A DNA stretch of 33,264 nucleotides from Anaerolineales bacterium (GCA_034436275.1 DAOTVX010000038.1:1-33264), one strand, 5' to 3'. Shown: positions 1 to 21,221, counted from the first letter of the stretch. The notes: generated by a model from the sequence alone, not told the origin. A program made the numbers and translations.

Positions 1-10
1 ATCCATCCTT

Positions 11-86
11 GTCATTGCGAGCCGCCGCAGGCGGCGAAGCAATCCCCTTGCTTGCCGGGAGATTGCTTCGCTACGCTCGCAATGAC
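11..86. repeat. MITE-like nested inverted-repeat module (A-B-B'-A'), copy 1, probably truncated at the window edge
   Basis: gtcattgcgag (11-21) and ggcgaagcaatcc (33-45), then the reverse complements gattgcttcgc (61-71) and ctcgcaatgac (76-86). The same four-part module recurs at 10789-10899 and 20905-20980. Confidence 0.8.
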
Positions 87-127
87 AAGAGGCAGAGGGT
101 TCTCCATTAGCCATGGTAGGTAGTTAC

Positions 128-438: not shown

Positions 439-467
439 TTGACAGAGCCTCTGCCTCAAGTATATAC
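439..467 (+). promoter_or_regulatory. Sigma70-like promoter for the SPFH-SPFH-S24 cassette
   Basis: TTGACA (439-444), 16-17 nt spacer, TATATA/ATATAC (461-467). A GAGGT ribosome-binding site at 506-510 lies 6 nt before ATG 517. Confidence 0.55.
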
Positions 468-516
468 TGATTTGCAAGGGACAACCGCGACCGAGACGAA
501 AGTTCGAGGTTCTTCT

Positions 517-2109
517 ATGAATATCCTGGAACGCTGGCTGGGTCATATCAATCCCTGGCTGGCCATTGCGCTGACGACTGCCCTGCTGGTCATCGGGATA
601 GTTCTGGACATCAGGGCCAAGCGCCGCGCCGGAAGACAACTGGCACCGGCGGATGTGCTGGCGTATCTGGCCTTCGGGCCGATTGCCATTCTGTTCGCCG
701 CAGGCTTTTGGGCCGCCGCGCAAACAGAGACGCTGTCCAGGGCAATGGCAAACGGCGTTATCCTCATGCTCTGGTTGATCCTGTGGAGCGTGCCACCAGC
801 AGTGATATATCTCCTGACGCGCCGTCACAGTGGCCGACGTGGTCTGCACACCGCCCTCTGGCACGTTTTTATCCTGTTCCTGGGCTGGTTGCTTGGCCGC
901 TCCTGGGGGCTGCTCCTGTTTTCCCTGCCTTTGCTGGGAATATTTTACTTCTACCTGCACCAGGCCGCGCTGGTAACGCTACCGGCCTCCCAACCCGAAG
1001 ACAGGGAGGAAAACCGGTTGCGCGCCCGGATACTGCGTTTCTATGCCTGGGGAATGCAATCGGCCATGTACGTGGTGGCCGATCACGCCGGTCGCAAAGT
1101 AGAACGACGCATTGCCGGCCCCATCGCGCGTGGATTTGGCGCGCCGGGATTGCTCTGGATGCGTTCCCATCAGGTCGCTGGCATCACCAGCGGCGTGGAA
1201 TTCCGCCGCGTGGATGGGCCAGGCGTGGTCTACCTGAACAGGCTTGAACGGCCCTTCCAGATTGTAGACCTGCGCAATCAACTGCGTGTTTCCACGTTAG
1301 ACGTCACCTCGCAAGATGGAATATCCTACAAAGCCATTCTGTTCATGGCGTTCCGTCTGGATCGAGAAGAATGGTCAGATCCGCTCTATCAAGCGATTTG
1401 CAAGGAGAATCCCTTACTCGAACGGGCCAGACGTCCTGCACGTCGGAATTCGACATACCCTTACTCCCCTCTGCGCGTTCAGGCAGTGCTGAGCAGAACG
1501 GGCATCAAAACGCACGGCGGAGAACAAACCACGCTGCACTGGGACGAATGGGTAGTATCACAAGTGGAAGAGGTAGCACGGCAGGAACTGCATCGGCATC
1601 CCATCAATTACTTCTGGCAAACAGCAGGGGGCGTGACCCAGGCGCTGGAGGACATTGCGCACGCCATTACCAATCAAGCCGGCCAGCGGCTGCGCCCGGC
1701 GGGGGTGCATTTGCTGACGGCACGAGTGGTTAACTTCCGCTTCTCGGATCAGACCGAAAAAGAGATTGACAGCATCTCCCAGCAGCAAATCGAATCCTGG
1801 AAATCCGTCTGGGAAAGAAAGCGGGAAGAGCTGCTTGCCCGATCAGAGGCCGAAGCCGCCCGCATGCAACAAGAGGCCTGGGCGTATGCGCAATCCCTGT
1901 TGTTGACTTCTATTGCAGAAGGATTTGAGCGAGTCAAACAACTCCATCCTGATCTCCCATCCTCCGCCATCGCCCTGCTCTTCCTCAGCGCCATTCAGGA
2001 CTACCTCACCCGCTACCAACCGGGTGAGGAAAGGAACCTGCAGAACCTTTCGGCGGCTCTGGGCCGCCGAAAACAGACCGGCCACAGTGACGCCGGTGTG
2101 GAGCACTAG
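517..2109 (+). CDS. Membrane SPFH/band-7-like domain protein (531 aa), paralogous to the next gene
   Basis: ORF 193..2109 trimmed to the first ATG with a ribosome-binding site. The earlier part of the ORF runs through repeat sequence. The N-terminus is a hydrophobic multi-helix region (LAIALTTALLVIGIVL; LAFGPIAILFAAGFWAAA; VILMLWLILWSVPPAVIYLL; FILFLGWLLG...). It is followed by a beta-rich segment and an E/A/R-rich helical tail (EKEIDSISQQQIESWKSVWERKREELLARSEAEAARMQQEAWAYAQ), as in stomatin/prohibitin-like proteins. Confidence 0.6.
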   Translation: MNILERWLGHINPWLAIALTTALLVIGIVLDIRAKRRAGRQLAPADVLAYLAFGPIAILFAAGFWAAAQTETLSRAMANGVILMLWLILWSVPPAVIYLLTRRHSGRRGLHTALWHVFILFLGWLLGRSWGLLLFSLPLLGIFYFYLHQAALVTLPASQPEDREENRLRARILRFYAWGMQSAMYVVADHAGRKVERRIAGPIARGFGAPGLLWMRSHQVAGITSGVEFRRVDGPGVVYLNRLERPFQIVDLRNQLRVSTLDVTSQDGISYKAILFMAFRLDREEWSDPLYQAICKENPLLERARRPARRNSTYPYSPLRVQAVLSRTGIKTHGGEQTTLHWDEWVVSQVEEVARQELHRHPINYFWQTAGGVTQALEDIAHAITNQAGQRLRPAGVHLLTARVVNFRFSDQTEKEIDSISQQQIESWKSVWERKREELLARSEAEAARMQQEAWAYAQSLLLTSIAEGFERVKQLHPDLPSSAIALLFLSAIQDYLTRYQPGEERNLQNLSAALGRRKQTGHSDAGVEH

Positions 2110-2114
2110 ACGCG

Positions 2115-3470
2115 ATGCCATTCCGACCTTCTTCCAACCCCGCCGACTGGCAGACTGGCGTTTACAATCGCCAGGAATTCGATCGCGATATAGCACAACG
2201 CCGGGTGCATCTGTGGCTGTCTTTTCTCGTGGCTACTCTGCCGGCAGGGCTGGTGCTTTTCGCCCTGTTGCAGTACGAACGCACCAGCAGGCTTTTCACT
2301 TCCTGGAACGCCTGGATATTAACGCTGCTCGGTATCCTCCCGTTAGCAATGTTATTCGACTTTCTGATAGTCAGAGCAGCCGTGCGGATCGCGGCGCAAT
2401 TCTTGCGCGAATTCTACCGGCCGCCTGAAGAGATCAACCCTGCACGAATCATCTGGTTTCGTCTGTACGGCATGTCAGATTTCACGAAAGTCGGTGAATG
2501 GCGGCAATTCCCTTACATCCTGGTCCGGGAAGGGAAATTGTTTGATGAAAAGGGTGACCATCAGGCCTGGATGGCGCAAAATCTGGGCGGGCCGCTGCGC
2601 CTGATTATTTTCGATGGCAACGCTCTGTATCTGGAACGAGGAGGCCGTTTTTCCCGCGTGGTTGGTCCGGGCCGTACCACCGCCTTTCTGGATTGGTTTG
2701 AAACGATCAAAGAGATCGTGGATACCCGCCCTCAAATGAGAGAGGACGCTCTGCTCCCCTGCTGGACGAGGGATGGAATTCGGGTCAACGTGACCGCGCG
2801 CGTGGAGTGTTCTTTAGGGAACCCGGCAGGCGAACAACGCAGGCTGCTCTATCCTTTCGATCCGGTGGCAGTCAGGAACGCCGTCGAACGCACCTCTGTG
2901 CGCATGCCCGACGGCAAAACACTCACCGAGATGAAAGGCTTGGATTTGGTCTGGGGGCAGGTGACCGGTGTGATACCGGATTATATTGGTCAATTCAAAC
3001 TGGACGAACTGCTCCTGCCCGAGCGAGGGGCCAGCCCAATCCTCAGCGCGGAAGCCACACAACACCTGCGCGACGCACTCAACCGGCTGACGCAACCGTT
3101 CGGTTACCACGTAACGAATGTGCAGATTACGCGTATCGAACTCCCTGCCGCCATCGAGGAACAGCGTGAACGCAACTGGCAGGCCGAACGGCAGAGTCTG
3201 GCGAATTTAATGCACGCCCAGGCAGAAGCGGCGCGCATTCGCGCCATCGAGCAGGCCCGCGCCGAAGCGCAACGCGACCTGATTCTGGCCATTGCCGAAG
3301 GCCTGAATCGCGATCCTACCCGGCGCTTTGCCGAACCGCTCCTCCTCGCCCTGACCAGCACGATTACCACCAGCCTGGCGAATCCGCTTGTGCCGCCTCT
3401 GCTGACTCCCGAAACGCTCCGCTCACTCGAGCAGTTAAAGGCCTTGCTGGAGGGGCAACATGAAACCTGA
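2115..3470 (+). CDS. Membrane SPFH/band-7 (stomatin/prohibitin-like) domain protein (451 aa)
   Basis: Two N-terminal TM helices (LWLSFLVATLPAGLVLFALL; ILTLLGILPLAMLFDFLIV). An SPFH-like core ends in TNVQITRIELPAAIEEQRERNWQAERQSLANLMHAQAEAARIRAIEQARAEAQRD, the typical coiled-coil tail. There is a 5-nt gap after the previous gene. Confidence 0.7.
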   Translation: MPFRPSSNPADWQTGVYNRQEFDRDIAQRRVHLWLSFLVATLPAGLVLFALLQYERTSRLFTSWNAWILTLLGILPLAMLFDFLIVRAAVRIAAQFLREFYRPPEEINPARIIWFRLYGMSDFTKVGEWRQFPYILVREGKLFDEKGDHQAWMAQNLGGPLRLIIFDGNALYLERGGRFSRVVGPGRTTAFLDWFETIKEIVDTRPQMREDALLPCWTRDGIRVNVTARVECSLGNPAGEQRRLLYPFDPVAVRNAVERTSVRMPDGKTLTEMKGLDLVWGQVTGVIPDYIGQFKLDELLLPERGASPILSAEATQHLRDALNRLTQPFGYHVTNVQITRIELPAAIEEQRERNWQAERQSLANLMHAQAEAARIRAIEQARAEAQRDLILAIAEGLNRDPTRRFAEPLLLALTSTITTSLANPLVPPLLTPETLRSLEQLKALLEGQHET

Positions 3471-4479
3471 AATTGAGCGCATCCTGCGCCTGATAACCTT
3501 CCCTCCCGATTGTGAGCCGCTGCGTGTACAACGCGAGCAGATATTTCTCATGTCCTCGCAAGAACTGTTAACTTTCCTGCTCTCTCTGGAGGATTTTCTG
3601 CAACAACCCTCGGCAGAGTTGATTCATGACTGCGCCTATCACTATCTGCTCGCCGGGACGATTGCCCTGGAGGAGAACAAAACGCGCCCGGCCCTTCGCT
3701 GGCTGGCACAAGCCGCCGATTCATTCCGCCGTCAGAACGATTTTTATAACGAAGCCCTGGCCTGCTGGCTCGCCGGCCTGGCCTGCGCGCGCGACCATCA
3801 GGTAGCCCAGGCAAAACGATATTATCAGCAGGCCAGCGATAAAATCAACTGCTGGGCTTCTCTGGAAGATCAAATGGAATCGAACATCTACCATCAAATC
3901 CGGCAGGGGATAGAGAGCAGTCTCGCGGCGACGCAGCAACCGCAGCCTGCCCCGGCCGGCGCCGCGACGGCAGCCGGGCCCGCAACCACCCTCAGTTTTC
4001 TCTCCCTGCGTTCCTTCCCCCATTTCGGGAGCGTTCAGGCAGGCCCCAACGGGCCTGTTTGGGCAGAAAGTGAAGGGACGGAAATCACGATAGCCATCGA
4101 CGGTTTCAGCATTGACACGGTAACCTACCGCGTTTTTTCTGTCCGACAAGGCGATAGCCGCATCAACCTGCAACGCCATCAACACTATGGTTTGGTTACC
4201 GTACATGGGGATAGCATGAACGCGGCCAAACCGGTACCCCTGACTGATGGCGATCTGGCGCTCTTCTACGCGGCAGACACGGCGGCCAACAATGAAATCG
4301 TCATCGCCTCCCACCCGGACGATAGCGGCTCCGGCTACCAGTATATGATTAAGCGCTGGCGAGCCAGTCAGCAGGCGTTCGTCTCAGAATCCCAAAAGGA
4401 ATATGAGCCAATCCCCTATGATCACCATCATCGCATCCTGGGCGTGGTGATTGCTGTCGCCAAACGGCCATCCCTTTGA
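3460..4479 (+). CDS. S24 (LexA/UmuD-like) autopeptidase-domain protein with TPR-like N-terminal domain; no HTH domain
   Basis: The C-terminus aligns motif-for-motif with the LexA C-terminal domain: VHGDSMN (Ser nucleophile), LTDGDLALFY, YMIKRW (Lys general base), ILGVVIAVAKR. The upstream segment FGSVQ-AG-PNG resembles the LexA Ala-Gly cleavage site. The start overlaps the previous gene by 11 nt. Confidence 0.8.
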   Translation: MKPEIERILRLITFPPDCEPLRVQREQIFLMSSQELLTFLLSLEDFLQQPSAELIHDCAYHYLLAGTIALEENKTRPALRWLAQAADSFRRQNDFYNEALACWLAGLACARDHQVAQAKRYYQQASDKINCWASLEDQMESNIYHQIRQGIESSLAATQQPQPAPAGAATAAGPATTLSFLSLRSFPHFGSVQAGPNGPVWAESEGTEITIAIDGFSIDTVTYRVFSVRQGDSRINLQRHQHYGLVTVHGDSMNAAKPVPLTDGDLALFYAADTAANNEIVIASHPDDSGSGYQYMIKRWRASQQAFVSESQKEYEPIPYDHHHRILGVVIAVAKRPSL

Positions 4480-4529
4480 TGCCTTCATCTCAGGGTTGTT
4501 CCTCATCGCCTGATATTCTGGCAAATCGC

Positions 4530-5468
4530 ATGATGACCGCGCGTTCTTCCTGTCTTCTCCTGGGCGCCGCCAGCCTGGACCTGATTGGCCGGCTGGAGGG
4601 AGAACTGCAGCCGGGCACGTCGAATCCGGCGCATATCCGCGCCGCTTACGGCGGCGTGGCGCGCAATGTAGCCGAAAATCTGGCGCGATTGGGAGAACAG
4701 GCGATATTAATGACAGCCGTCGGCGCGGATCGCATCGGCGAGGAAATCCTGAACCATACCGCCCAGGCAGGAGTGGATGTCTCTGTCTCTATCCGCAGCG
4801 AAGCGTTCCCCAGCGGCTTTTACCTGGCCGCCCTCGACCCGCGCGGCGCCCTGGCATTCGCTCTGGACGATATGCGCGTGATGACCAGCCTGACCCCCAC
4901 GGTAATACGCGAGCACCAGGCGCTCTTCCGCTCCGTCTCTCTGGTCTTCGTAGATGCCAATCTCTCCCCACAGGCGTTGAAAACCGTTTTTGCCCTGGCC
5001 AGGAAAGCCGGCGTACCCGTTTGCGCGGATCCCACCTCGGTCAGTCTGGCAGAGCGACTCAGGGAACATTTGCAGGATTTATTCTTGATTACGCCGAATA
5101 GTGCCGAGGCCGCCGTATTGACCGGTCAGCCTTTCGATCCGTCCGATGTGAACGCCGCTACCGCCGCCGCGCGCCGGCTGGTGGCTCTGGGCGTCCAGAC
5201 GGCAATCATCACGCTGGCCGAGTTCGGGGTCTGTTACGCCACTTCCGAGACAACCGGCCATATCCCGGCCCTGCGCACGAAAATCGTTGACCCGACCGGC
5301 GCGGGCGATGCCCTGACCGCCGCCGTCCTGTTCGGCCTGTTGAATGAGATTCCTCTCGATGATGCCCTGCGCCTGGGCGTTTCCGCCGCATCCCTCACCC
5401 TGCGCGCTGAAGGTACTGTAGACCCCCACCTTTCACTGGAACGATTATACGACCAGCTGCTGATATGA
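4530..5468 (+). CDS. psuK: PfkB-family carbohydrate kinase, probable pseudouridine kinase
   Basis: Ribokinase-like fold motifs (N-terminal LLLGAASLDLIG; C-terminal DPTGAGDALTAAVLFGL anion hole). Sits immediately upstream of psuG with an ATGA overlap. In-frame alternative starts exist at TTG 4476 and ATG 4479, which overlaps the S24 gene's stop. Confidence 0.75.
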   Translation: MMTARSSCLLLGAASLDLIGRLEGELQPGTSNPAHIRAAYGGVARNVAENLARLGEQAILMTAVGADRIGEEILNHTAQAGVDVSVSIRSEAFPSGFYLAALDPRGALAFALDDMRVMTSLTPTVIREHQALFRSVSLVFVDANLSPQALKTVFALARKAGVPVCADPTSVSLAERLREHLQDLFLITPNSAEAAVLTGQPFDPSDVNAATAAARRLVALGVQTAIITLAEFGVCYATSETTGHIPALRTKIVDPTGAGDALTAAVLFGLLNEIPLDDALRLGVSAASLTLRAEGTVDPHLSLERLYDQLLI

Positions 5469-6397
5469 ACTCATCATCGCTACGTATCGCCCGTACCCCC
5501 GAAGTCACTCAGGCCCTGCAACGCGGCCTGCCTGTCGTGGCCCTGGAATCGGCAGTGATCACGCACGGCCTGCCTCGCCCCAGCAACCACGCTCTGGCGC
5601 GCGGCATGGAGCAAGCCATCCGCGACGAAGGAGCAACGCCGGCCACGATCGCCGTCCTCCATGGTCAGATTCACGTTGGTCTGACCGCAGAGCAGCTCCA
5701 GCAATTAGCCCAGCAGAGCGACGCCCAGAAGATCAGTCCGCGCAATCTGGCCGCTGTGCTGCTGCAGAAAGGAAGTGGCGGGACAACGGTCGCCGGCGCA
5801 CTCTGGATCGCCCAACGCGCGGGGCTGAAGGTCTTTGCTACCGGTGGCATCGGCGGCGTGTATTCGCCGCTCACCCTGGATATCTCCGCCGACTTGCCCC
5901 TTCTGGCCGAGTCGCCCCTGATTGTCGTCTGCGCTGGAGCAAAGGCCATTCACGATTTGCCCGCCACCCTGGAATACCTGGAGACCGTTGGCGTGCCGGT
6001 CATCGGCTATCAGACCAACGAGTTTCCGGCCTTCTACTGGCGCGAAAGTGGCCTGCCGGTGACCATACGCCTGGATACGCCCAAAGAGGTGGCAGATTTT
6101 GCGCGCCTGCACTGGGGTCTGGGAATGCACAGCGCGGTGCTGGTCTGTCAACCTCCACCCCGTGAGCAAGCGCTGCCCCGCGCCGGGCTGGAAAGCCTGA
6201 TTCACCGTGTGCGAGCCGAGGCCGAGAAACAAAACATCCGCCGTCAGGCATTAACGCCGTTCCTGCTGCAGCGCCTGAACGATCTGACCCATGATGAAAC
6301 GCTGCGCACCAATCTGGCGCTCTTGCTGCACAACGCCTCGCTGGCCGCCCGCATCGCCTGCGCCATGCCTCTGGAAAAAACTCCCCAGACCATTTGA
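5465..6397 (+). CDS. psuG: Pseudouridine-5'-phosphate glycosidase
   Basis: VVALESAVITHGLPRPSN and FATGGIGGV motifs are characteristic of PsuG (indigoidine synthase A-like family). ATGA overlap with psuK. Confidence 0.85.
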   Translation: MNSSSLRIARTPEVTQALQRGLPVVALESAVITHGLPRPSNHALARGMEQAIRDEGATPATIAVLHGQIHVGLTAEQLQQLAQQSDAQKISPRNLAAVLLQKGSGGTTVAGALWIAQRAGLKVFATGGIGGVYSPLTLDISADLPLLAESPLIVVCAGAKAIHDLPATLEYLETVGVPVIGYQTNEFPAFYWRESGLPVTIRLDTPKEVADFARLHWGLGMHSAVLVCQPPPREQALPRAGLESLIHRVRAEAEKQNIRRQALTPFLLQRLNDLTHDETLRTNLALLLHNASLAARIACAMPLEKTPQTI

Positions 6398-10752: not shown

Positions 10753-10934
10753 TAACTACCTCGACAATGTCATATTTCGGCATCGTTGTCATTGCGAGGG
10801 CGTTCTCTGCCCGAAGCAATCCCCTGGTAATTGGGAGACTGCTTACCTTGAGACTCGCAAAGAGATTGCTTCGGCGGCTATCGCCGCCTCGCAATGACAA
10901 GGGACAGATAATCTAACATTGTCGAGATAGTTCC
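10753..10934. mobile_element. Complete MITE-like element with terminal inverted repeats and a 9-bp target-site duplication
   Basis: Left TIR gtaactacctcgacaatgt (10753-10771) versus right acattgtcgagatagtt (10917-10933), 16/17 match. Flanking direct repeats caagatttt at 10744-10752 and 10935-10943. The interior carries the A-B-B'-A' module (gtcattgcgag 10789-10799 ... ctcgcaatgac 10889-10899). No transposase. Confidence 0.8.
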
Positions 10935-12806: not shown

Positions 12807-12854
12807 GATTGCTTCGCCGAAAAACGGCTCGCCATGACATGGCTGAGTAGTTAC
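12807..12854. repeat. MITE-family half copy, 48-bp stretch identical to 128-175
   Basis: Exact 48-bp identity. Preceded by ggga, as in copy 1 (56-60). Lies in the glucosidase-MFS intergenic region. Confidence 0.8.
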
Positions 12855-20904: not shown

Positions 20905-20980
20905 TGTCACGGCGAGCGAAGCGAAGCAGTCTCCCGGCAGGCAAGCGGATTGCTTCGCCGCCCAGGCGGCTCGCAATGAC
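20905..20980. repeat. MITE-family copy (diverged A-B arm, conserved B'-A' arm)
   Basis: gtcacggcgagcgaagcgaagcagtctcc ... ggattgcttcgcc ... gctcgcaatgac. Flanked by imperfect inverted repeats atgttgctctgttgc / gcagcagaacat. Located in an AT-richer 458-bp intergenic region. Confidence 0.7.
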
Positions 20981-21221
20981 ATCATCGCAGCAGAACATAT
21001 GAAAACTTGCAAAATCATAGGGTTTTCGTATTGCGTGCAATAACTTTTGAAGGCACGCCGTAGATAATTCTGACTCGACTGCCAAAAGGCCCTGTTACCA
21101 TCCCGTACCCAGAACACGCGCCGTAACCTTCGGCGCGGGAACTTTGTGCTCCCAGCATTTTGCGCGCGGCCCTCTGGCAGTGGACTCAACCTTAATAAAA
21201 CCCTGACCTCTGGAGGCGACG

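Follow-up and report, generated by a model that had tools for sequence, protein, structure and literature searches.

The open reading frame at 3460..4479 (+ strand) of a 33,264-nucleotide stretch of DNA from an Anaerolineales bacterium (GCA_034436275.1 DAOTVX010000038.1:1-33264; the whole stretch is hereafter the window) encoded a 339-aa protein, here called S24/TPR, which is a true member of the S24/LexA-like superfamily by its fold, its catalytic dyad and its Ala-Gly site. It carried a TPR-like helical domain at its N terminus, and its gene followed two genes for membrane proteins of the SPFH type (SPFH1 and SPFH2) in a cassette that was conserved in related genomes. We favour, with somewhat better than even confidence, the view that S24/TPR is a soluble cytoplasmic, self-cleaving TPR adaptor of a heteromeric SPFH1/SPFH2 membrane scaffold, with the build of LexA but another domain in place of the DNA-binding head. 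Self-cleavage by S24 proteins is well understood, but is known almost only for inactivating DNA-binding repressors (LexA, phage CI) or for activating UmuD. The switch itself is therefore known, and what is new is the output domain and the conserved partnership with SPFH proteins. We found no description of S24 joined to TPR, of S24 with SPFH, or of the cassette in open-access papers and bioRxiv, an absence that is not proof.

An earlier note on this DNA had credited the protein with the full LexA catalytic apparatus and an Ala-Gly site, and this was borne out: the order of the elements was correct, their residues aligned with those of LexA, CI and UmuD, and their conservation within the family was strong. 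The Pfam model Peptidase_S24 (PF00717) scored 36.5 bits over residues 233-331, above its gathering cutoff of 23.3. The motifs listed in that note were all present and in LexA order, namely FGSVQ-A194/G195-PNGPV (the slash marks the scissile bond here and below), GDS252MN, TDGDL, MIK298RW and ILGVVIAVAK. The cleavage-site region (4018..4074, +; aa 187-205) followed the pattern P-x-[YF]-x-x-V-x-A/G-x-x-G, with the codons of the predicted scissile Ala194-Gly195 at nt 4039-4044, and was followed by the S24 catalytic and dimerisation beta-domain (4075..4476, +; aa 206-339), with the Ser252 nucleophile at nt 4213-4215 and the Lys298 general base at nt 4351-4353. In a self-consistent alignment with E. 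coli LexA, lambda CI and UmuD, Ala194-Gly195 (in FGSVQAGPNGPV) fell on the scissile bonds of LexA (A84-G85), CI (A111-G112) and UmuD (C24-G25), Ser252 (GDSMN) on LexA S119, CI S149 and UmuD S60, and Lys298 (MIKRW) on LexA K156, CI K192 and UmuD K97. The site resembled that of lambda CI (FSHVQA/GMFSPE in CI, FGSVQA/GPNGPV here), with the positions of Ser and Lys also kept, and the C-terminal strand GVVI.V.K was similar to that of UmuD. Comparison of the family profile with LexA by hhalign gave a probability of 90%.

A search of the whole protein sequence against the PDB returned no meaningful match, so a search by fold was needed. Structure prediction had been proposed as a check in the same note, and the AlphaFold2 (AF2) models of the catalytic domain superposed on the C-domains of M. 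tuberculosis and E. coli LexA, lambda CI and UmuD' with a root-mean-square deviation of 2.1-3 A over ~96-100 residues and a template modelling score of ~0.70-0.75. The best 38 PDB fold matches of this domain found by Foldseek were all S24 proteins (LexA, CI or UmuD'), with S26 signal peptidases far behind. The full-length AF2 model had a mean predicted local distance difference test score (pLDDT) of 75.6, and a model of the fragment 178-339 had a core pLDDT of 85-97 and a predicted template modelling score (pTM) of 0.75. The protein had no hydrophobic transmembrane (TM) segment and is thus predicted to be soluble.

The N-terminal domain (3460..3939, +; aa 1-160) comprised eight helices, was acidic (isoelectric point 5.2) and was modelled by AF2 at a pLDDT of ~90. 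It superposed on three-repeat TPR domains, among them those of sNASP/Hif1, Sec72, CHIP/STUB1, Sti1 and KLC, with a Foldseek probability of 1.0 and E-values of 3e-3 to 3e-2. The two ~34-aa repeats described previously both held TPR signature residues: the first (3634..3735, +; aa 59-92) had G66, A78 and A85 at signature positions 8/20/27, and the second (3754..3855, +; aa 99-132) had G106, A118, Y122 and A125 at positions 8/20/24/27, with A78, A85 and A125 invariant or near-invariant across the family. TPR models of Pfam matched 13 of 51 diverse relatives (TPR_12 in 13, TPR_2 in 9), and a 2,559-aa TPR protein matched positions 67-167 of the family profile fifteen times. The repeats of the window protein itself fell below the Pfam TPR thresholds, for which reason "TPR-like" is the correct wording. 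Pfam and NCBIfam models detected no helix-turn-helix (HTH) or other DNA-binding domain in S24/TPR, in agreement with the previous claim that the HTH is missing and with the acidic, TPR-type character of the domain. The Q/P/A-rich linker said to connect the two domains was likewise real (3940..4017, +; aa ~161-186), flexible and unstructured (pLDDT 23-33), and variable in length and sequence within the family.

S24/TPR shared with LexA of E. coli, M. tuberculosis and T. maritima the S24 fold, the Ser-Lys dyad, an Ala-Gly bond in a loop N-terminal to the core, and a two-domain build with a flexible hinge. Unlike LexA, it had a TPR-like N-domain of ~160 residues instead of a winged HTH and a hairpin insertion of ~22 residues, and its gene lay in an SPFH operon rather than being autoregulated or stand-alone. 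An identity as LexA proper was rejected: there was no match to LexA_DNA_bind or an HTH, and TIGR00498 scored 19.7 bits against a cutoff of 110.95, on the C-domain only. In contrast to lambda CI, S24/TPR was not phage-borne and lacked an HTH. A phage repressor family was also rejected, as viral contigs gave only weak, distant matches, and those to the S24 domain alone.

An exhaustive profile search of 1.84 billion representatives returned 179 clusters at E <= 1e-30 (~180 representatives at 50% identity), most of them 320-440 aa long and matching the profile end to end, whereas a word-indexed search found only 13 relatives and a word-indexed, profile-driven search contributed only 5 further sequences. 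All nine GTDB species matches, together with the named metagenome-assembled genomes, were Chloroflexota, mostly Anaerolineae/Anaerolineales. Conservation was counted over 161 sequences with a mutual identity of <=50%. Ser252 was kept in 154 of them and Lys298 in 153, Ala194 in 142, Gly198 in 141 and Pro187 in 128; Gly195 was kept in 113, with Ser in a further 23. Because they are conserved in ~160 representatives at this level of divergence, the LexA-like features are more than a chance resemblance. Substitutions of Ser252, Lys298 and Ala194 were also associated with one another (Fisher p = 2e-5, 2e-5 and 1e-6 in the 155 sequences with all three positions, by a test that ignores phylogeny). 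Such joint losses spanned at least four independent lineages, with P0042, P0064 and P0067 each having intact nearest relatives and P0061/P0070/P0130/P0069 forming the fourth. The joint loss of Ser, Lys and Ala194 argues that they make up one self-cleavage unit and that Ala194-Gly195 is the enzyme's own substrate. Two catalytically dead members stood out. The homolog at locus L038 read VRDG / GHGMN / VRRY at the three sites, yet remained in the cassette; in P0164, Ser and Lys were both replaced by Asn next to an intact Ala-Gly, and since its close relative P0028 was intact, the sequences suggest that this catalytic loss is apparently recent. That dead copies are kept in the cassette implies an additional, cleavage-independent (scaffolding) role. 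The proposal in the earlier note of a self-cleaving protein with an output other than DNA binding is thus supported in silico by the conservation of dyad and site, by their co-loss, and by a TPR-type N-domain without an HTH.

That note had also suggested a link with the neighbouring SPFH proteins, which was strongly reinforced by a finding new to this analysis, the conserved SPFH1-SPFH2-S24/TPR cassette. Related loci were gathered via exact-protein look-ups, GTDB genomes and JGI metagenomes, and in every one of the ~24 non-redundant loci with enough upstream DNA, the S24 gene came straight after SPFH1 and SPFH2, with all three genes on one strand. Even S24 proteins of no more than 27% identity still sat in the cassette, whose outer flanks varied between loci (DnaA, FTHFS, HisKA, ETF, CSD etc.). 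The S24 gene overlapped or abutted SPFH2 at these junctions; in the window, its start overlapped the SPFH2 end by 11 nt, with GGAGG 8 nt upstream of the ATG, and the overlap was similar in L001, L006, L009, L011, L014 and L017. A 666-aa variant with a longer N-region also directly followed an SPFH2 ortholog (34% identity, E 1e-67). Identity to orthologs was 27-48% for S24/TPR, 36-73% for SPFH1 and SPFH2, 53-85% for the downstream PfkB and Indigoidine_A genes, and 54-64% for the PHP gene found upstream in most loci (outside the near-identical L019/L020 loci), so that S24/TPR evolves faster than its neighbour genes.

SPFH1 (514..2109, +; 531 aa) was a membrane protein whose 4-5 TM helices at the N terminus were followed by a divergent SPFH domain, predicted to be cytoplasmic, and a coiled coil. 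Its listed open reading frame starts at 193, and the ATG at 514 agrees with the orthologs. Pfam Band_7 matched it at 18.3 bits, below the cutoff, and it was a divergent paralog of SPFH2 (E 3e-12). SPFH2 (2115..3470, +; 451 aa) had a two-TM hairpin, an SPFH/Band_7 domain (Pfam Band_7, 50.6 bits), a coiled coil and, in its C-terminal part, a hydrophobic segment that was conserved. The hairpin was flanked by K/R-rich stretches, from which the SPFH domains are predicted to lie in the cytoplasm, on the same side of the membrane as soluble S24/TPR.

The S24 domains of LexA, CI and UmuD dimerise. We propose that the S24 domain of S24/TPR would do likewise. The intact dimer, with its two TPR domains a bivalent adaptor, would then act either on the SPFH assembly itself or on some client that this assembly holds. 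S24/TPR would be co-transcribed, and probably translationally coupled, with SPFH1 and SPFH2. On a signal, comparable to RecA* or high pH in the case of LexA, the loop with the cleavage site would swing into the active site, and Ser252/Lys298 would cut their own chain at Ala194-Gly195. This would irreversibly part the TPR domain from the dimeric core, avidity would fall, and the state of the SPFH complex would be switched. SPFH1 and SPFH2 themselves may form a hetero-oligomeric cage on the cytoplasmic membrane face, by analogy with HflK/HflC-FtsH and the flotillin cages, where there are likewise two paralogous SPFH genes side by side and a cage that is expected to work with a protease (PMC12005517, PMC11260169). 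HflK/C differ in that they face the periplasm and enclose the metalloprotease FtsH, whereas here the SPFH domains are predicted to be cytoplasmic and the partner is a soluble S24 protein. Cleavage might also leave the N-fragment with an exposed C-terminal V-x-A that resembles the ClpXP degron of LexA and IrvR (PMC7101444). IrvR of Streptococcus mutans is a LexA-like protein in which RecA-independent autocleavage exposes a ClpXP degron, and thus an example of a non-SOS use of the module, although unlike S24/TPR it retains an HTH and is a transcriptional repressor (PMC7101444). SPFH proteins in an operon with a Ser-Lys protease partner also have precedent (PMC3795559, PMC2636767), and the pairing of SPFH with NfeD/STOPP is the nearest parallel in function, its operonic place being taken here by a protease of another fold. 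RecA* is the default trigger for the S24 family; here, the constant association with membrane scaffolds speaks for a trigger outside the SOS response. More tentatively, as a possibility that we hold at well under even confidence, LexA-type autoproteolysis could act as a non-transcriptional one-shot switch on an SPFH cage, with the S24/TPR dimer as an integral third subunit, the state of the membrane or cage rather than RecA* as the trigger, and the TPR adaptor released or destroyed.

Several observations weigh against the adaptor interpretation. The distance from the cleavage site to Ser252 was 57 residues, compared with 35-37 in LexA, CI and UmuD. This excess of ~22 residues over the characterised S24 proteins is accounted for by an inserted beta-hairpin of ~22 residues (~aa 214-236) that is specific to the family. 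In both AF2 models the cleavage-site region was undocked from the active site at a pLDDT of <45 (residues 161-211 in the full-length model and 178-206 in the fragment), in models built on shallow alignments of 13-16 sequences, an outcome that does not refute self-cleavage. LexA's own cleavage loop takes both cleavable and non-cleavable positions. The dead variant P0164, as noted, retained its Ala-Gly. Two architectures of the S24 subfamily occurred without SPFH genes, a DUF4062-S24 fusion beside TIR and NERD and a 485-aa variant beside PHP. All named genomes belonged to one class, Anaerolineae, so that common descent could explain some of the conserved gene order. A CHIP/Hop-style clamp of the TPR domain on a C-terminal peptide was unsupported, as ortholog alignments contained no conserved extreme C-termini of SPFH1 or SPFH2 that might serve as a TPR ligand.

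Alternatively, S24/TPR might be a trans-acting protease that replaces NfeD/STOPP, docking by its TPR domain and cutting SPFH1 or SPFH2 (for example the hydrophobic C-terminal segment of SPFH2), perhaps besides cleaving itself. We regard this as a live but unlikely alternative. We know of no characterised S24 peptidase that cuts anything other than itself or an identical subunit. The best PDB sequence match of SPFH2 was the P. horikoshii stomatin PH1511 (3bk6, E 1.7e-7), which is encoded with the Ser-Lys dyad protease PH1510 and has its C-terminal hydrophobic region cut by it (PMC3795559), and the corresponding segment of SPFH2 was conserved. Such pairings are widespread, and NfeD is the partner of most SPFH1, SPFH2 and SPFH5 subfamilies (PMC2636767). 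None of the cassette loci, by contrast, had a called NfeD gene. Cleavage by UmuD and IrvR can, moreover, be intermolecular (PMC7101444). PH1510 nevertheless has a ClpP-like S49 fold, TM segments and an OB-fold domain, where S24/TPR is a soluble S24 protein with a TPR-like domain, and PH1510 cuts stomatin in trans, where S24/TPR carries a conserved site of its own. An identity as NfeD was rejected, since there was no NfeD- or ClpP-family Pfam match and no TM segment and the fold was S24, leaving only the operon logic in common. Cleavage in trans is not favoured because the Ala-Gly site within S24/TPR is itself conserved and was co-lost with the dyad, because ortholog alignments revealed no conserved LexA-like x-A-G site in the exposed parts of SPFH1 or SPFH2, and because dead members (L038, P0164) persist in the cassette.

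It is also conceivable, if quite unlikely, that S24/TPR is a DNA-damage (RecA*)-responsive factor of the UmuD/LexA type whose link with SPFH is secondary and whose partner is the PHP phosphoesterase or another nucleic-acid enzyme. The catalytic domain was most similar to UmuD' and LexA, with UmuD' giving the highest sequence identity among the structural matches (27-28%), and UmuD is, like S24/TPR, an S24 protein without a DNA-binding domain, whose self-cleavage alters protein-protein interactions. UmuD has a 24-residue N-terminal arm and UmuC as its partner, however, whereas S24/TPR had a 194-residue N-terminal part with a TPR-like domain and no umuC nearby. Neither umuC or another Y-family polymerase gene nor recA was present in any of the neighbourhoods, and the NCBIfam models for UmuD (NF007621, 19.9 bits against 110) and LexA both scored ~20 bits against cutoffs of ~110, so that an identity as UmuD was rejected. 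Responsiveness to RecA* is common to the classical S24 proteins without exception (PMC9926225, PMC7101444), but RecA-independent S24 proteins exist (PMC7101444). A divergent PHP/PHP_C phosphoesterase gene was adjacent upstream of SPFH1 in most loci, and also abutted the 485-aa variant that lacks the SPFH pair; the 513 nt that the window offers upstream nevertheless contained dispersed palindromic repeats and no PHP gene, and none was found in L017.

We give little credence to the idea that the gene order is mere inherited synteny within Anaerolineae and that S24/TPR acts independently of the SPFH pair. The restriction of all named genomes to one class would fit it, as would the two variant architectures outside the cassette and the housekeeping-like PfkB and Indigoidine_A genes that are also often adjacent. 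Against it stand the overlapping junctions (3460/3470 in the window), the persistence of the triad between changing outer flanks on both sides at an S24 identity of 27-47%, and the long variant that still holds its position right after SPFH2. It is very improbable, finally, that S24/TPR is a transcriptional repressor of a non-canonical kind whose N-domain conceals a DNA-binding activity: JGI/IMG names P0028 "SOS-response transcriptional repressor LexA", most S24 proteins are repressors (PMC7101444) and non-canonical LexA proteins are known (PMC8565304), but no HTH or other DNA-binding family was detected, the acidic N-domain superposed whole on TPR domains and its relatives matched TPR models in the proportion given above, and the repeats upstream of the operon were not conserved in 58 related loci.

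An S24 switch on a TPR domain in an SPFH operon would carry the LexA paradigm beyond gene regulation, into the control of a membrane complex. It touches an old open question, why prokaryotic SPFH proteins so often travel with a Ser-Lys protease partner (NfeD), and a second, unrelated Ser-Lys fold at the same operonic position would argue independently for a central place of proteolysis in what SPFH proteins do. If the more tentative possibility of a one-shot switch on an SPFH cage is true, SPFH scaffolds have recruited a Ser-Lys protease at least twice independently (the ClpP fold of NfeD and the S24 fold), and regulated proteolysis would be intrinsic to SPFH biology. The computational case is coherent and the family of some size, but the biology is inferred and confined to one bacterial class. 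S24/TPR is a soluble and readily assayed protein that makes the SPFH-protease question testable. The automatic JGI/IMG naming of P0028 as a LexA repressor is unsupported by its domain content and misleading for predictions of the SOS regulon in Chloroflexota.

Around the cassette, a sigma-70-like promoter candidate (439..468, +; TTGACA-18-TATACT, 11/12) preceded the first gene of the cassette by ~45 nt. Two such consensus sites were found in the region against 2.6 expected, which makes the match weak alone, and the position of 439-468 fits. No convincing internal terminator was found within the gene array. Downstream, a PfkB-family kinase gene (4479..5468, +; best match pseudouridine kinase; alternative starts 4476 and 4530) overlapped the S24 stop (TGATG) and was followed by an Indigoidine_A or pseudouridine-5'-phosphate glycosidase-like gene (5465..6397, +; Pfam 367.9 bits). 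PfkB and/or Indigoidine_A were present downstream in about two thirds of the related loci and PfkB in about half, so that PfkB is a frequent neighbour and not an obligatory member of the cassette. The PHP phosphoesterase had weak matches to nucleoside bisphosphate phosphatase and RNase RNM, and together with the kinase-like and glycosidase-like genes it gives the block a nucleotide/RNA-turnover flavour that is unexplained. PADLOC defence models gave only chance-level Csx21 matches (E ~0.03) against the cassette proteins, with none for SPFH1 or SPFH2.

A dispersed palindromic repeat at the left end of the window (8-89) consisted of a perfect 15-nt inverted repeat (CTTGTCATTGCGAGC / GCTCGCAATGACAAG) around a second hairpin at 34-71, and occupied the place that the divergent PHP gene has in related genomes. 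The same 15-mer family recurred at 148-162, 10785-10901, 12827-12841 and 20969-20983, giving seven copies in the window against 0.14 expected. Between this repeat and the promoter-like site, 100-250 nt upstream of the latter, the sequence ACGAAT(A/C)AACGAAT was present in three copies (214-231, 301-318 and 328-341), as a direct and inverted repeat. This motif had no match in any of the 58 related loci, and the idea that the ACGAATNAACGAAT repeats upstream of the operon are a conserved operator was thus rejected.

Relatives of S24/TPR also varied in architecture. The closest non-identical relative, P0002 (416 aa, 55% identity), had an extra C-terminal tail of ~75 residues (~340-416, with the sequence GYAELVSLVGGKKDVADRLIEVEQKRDPKSSRSDCISRAIAKLLHDRQP) that is absent from the window protein, and P0061, P0075 and P0117 had C-terminal extensions of ~200 aa without a Pfam match. 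In P0113 (L053:919-2583), the S24 module (E 1e-43 to the profile) was fused to an N-terminal DUF4062 (TIR-like) domain and not to a TPR domain, in a neighbourhood of TIR_2, NERD and DUF7662 genes that looks like a defence island. This architecture suggests that the self-cleaving module has been reused to regulate other non-DNA-binding domains, and that it may be a general, releasable "safety catch" for such effectors. The 485-aa variant P0122 (L057:436-1893 and L058:570-2027, on contigs of ~2.4 kb) had an unassigned N-region of ~290 aa and lay directly beside a divergent PHP-domain gene with no SPFH pair between, which may be a hint that the link between PHP and S24 is significant by itself. 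At L038, ~1.8 kb of extra DNA (3460-5320) lay between SPFH2 and the catalytically dead S24/TPR gene. In one sub-lineage (L051:9145-12124, L052 and L006:6957-8314), the cassette was followed by a small open reading frame (118-123 aa) and a gene for a Trypsin_2 (HtrA-like) protease, which in L051, whose S24 protein is the dead P0164, was fused to WD40 beta-propellers (815 aa).

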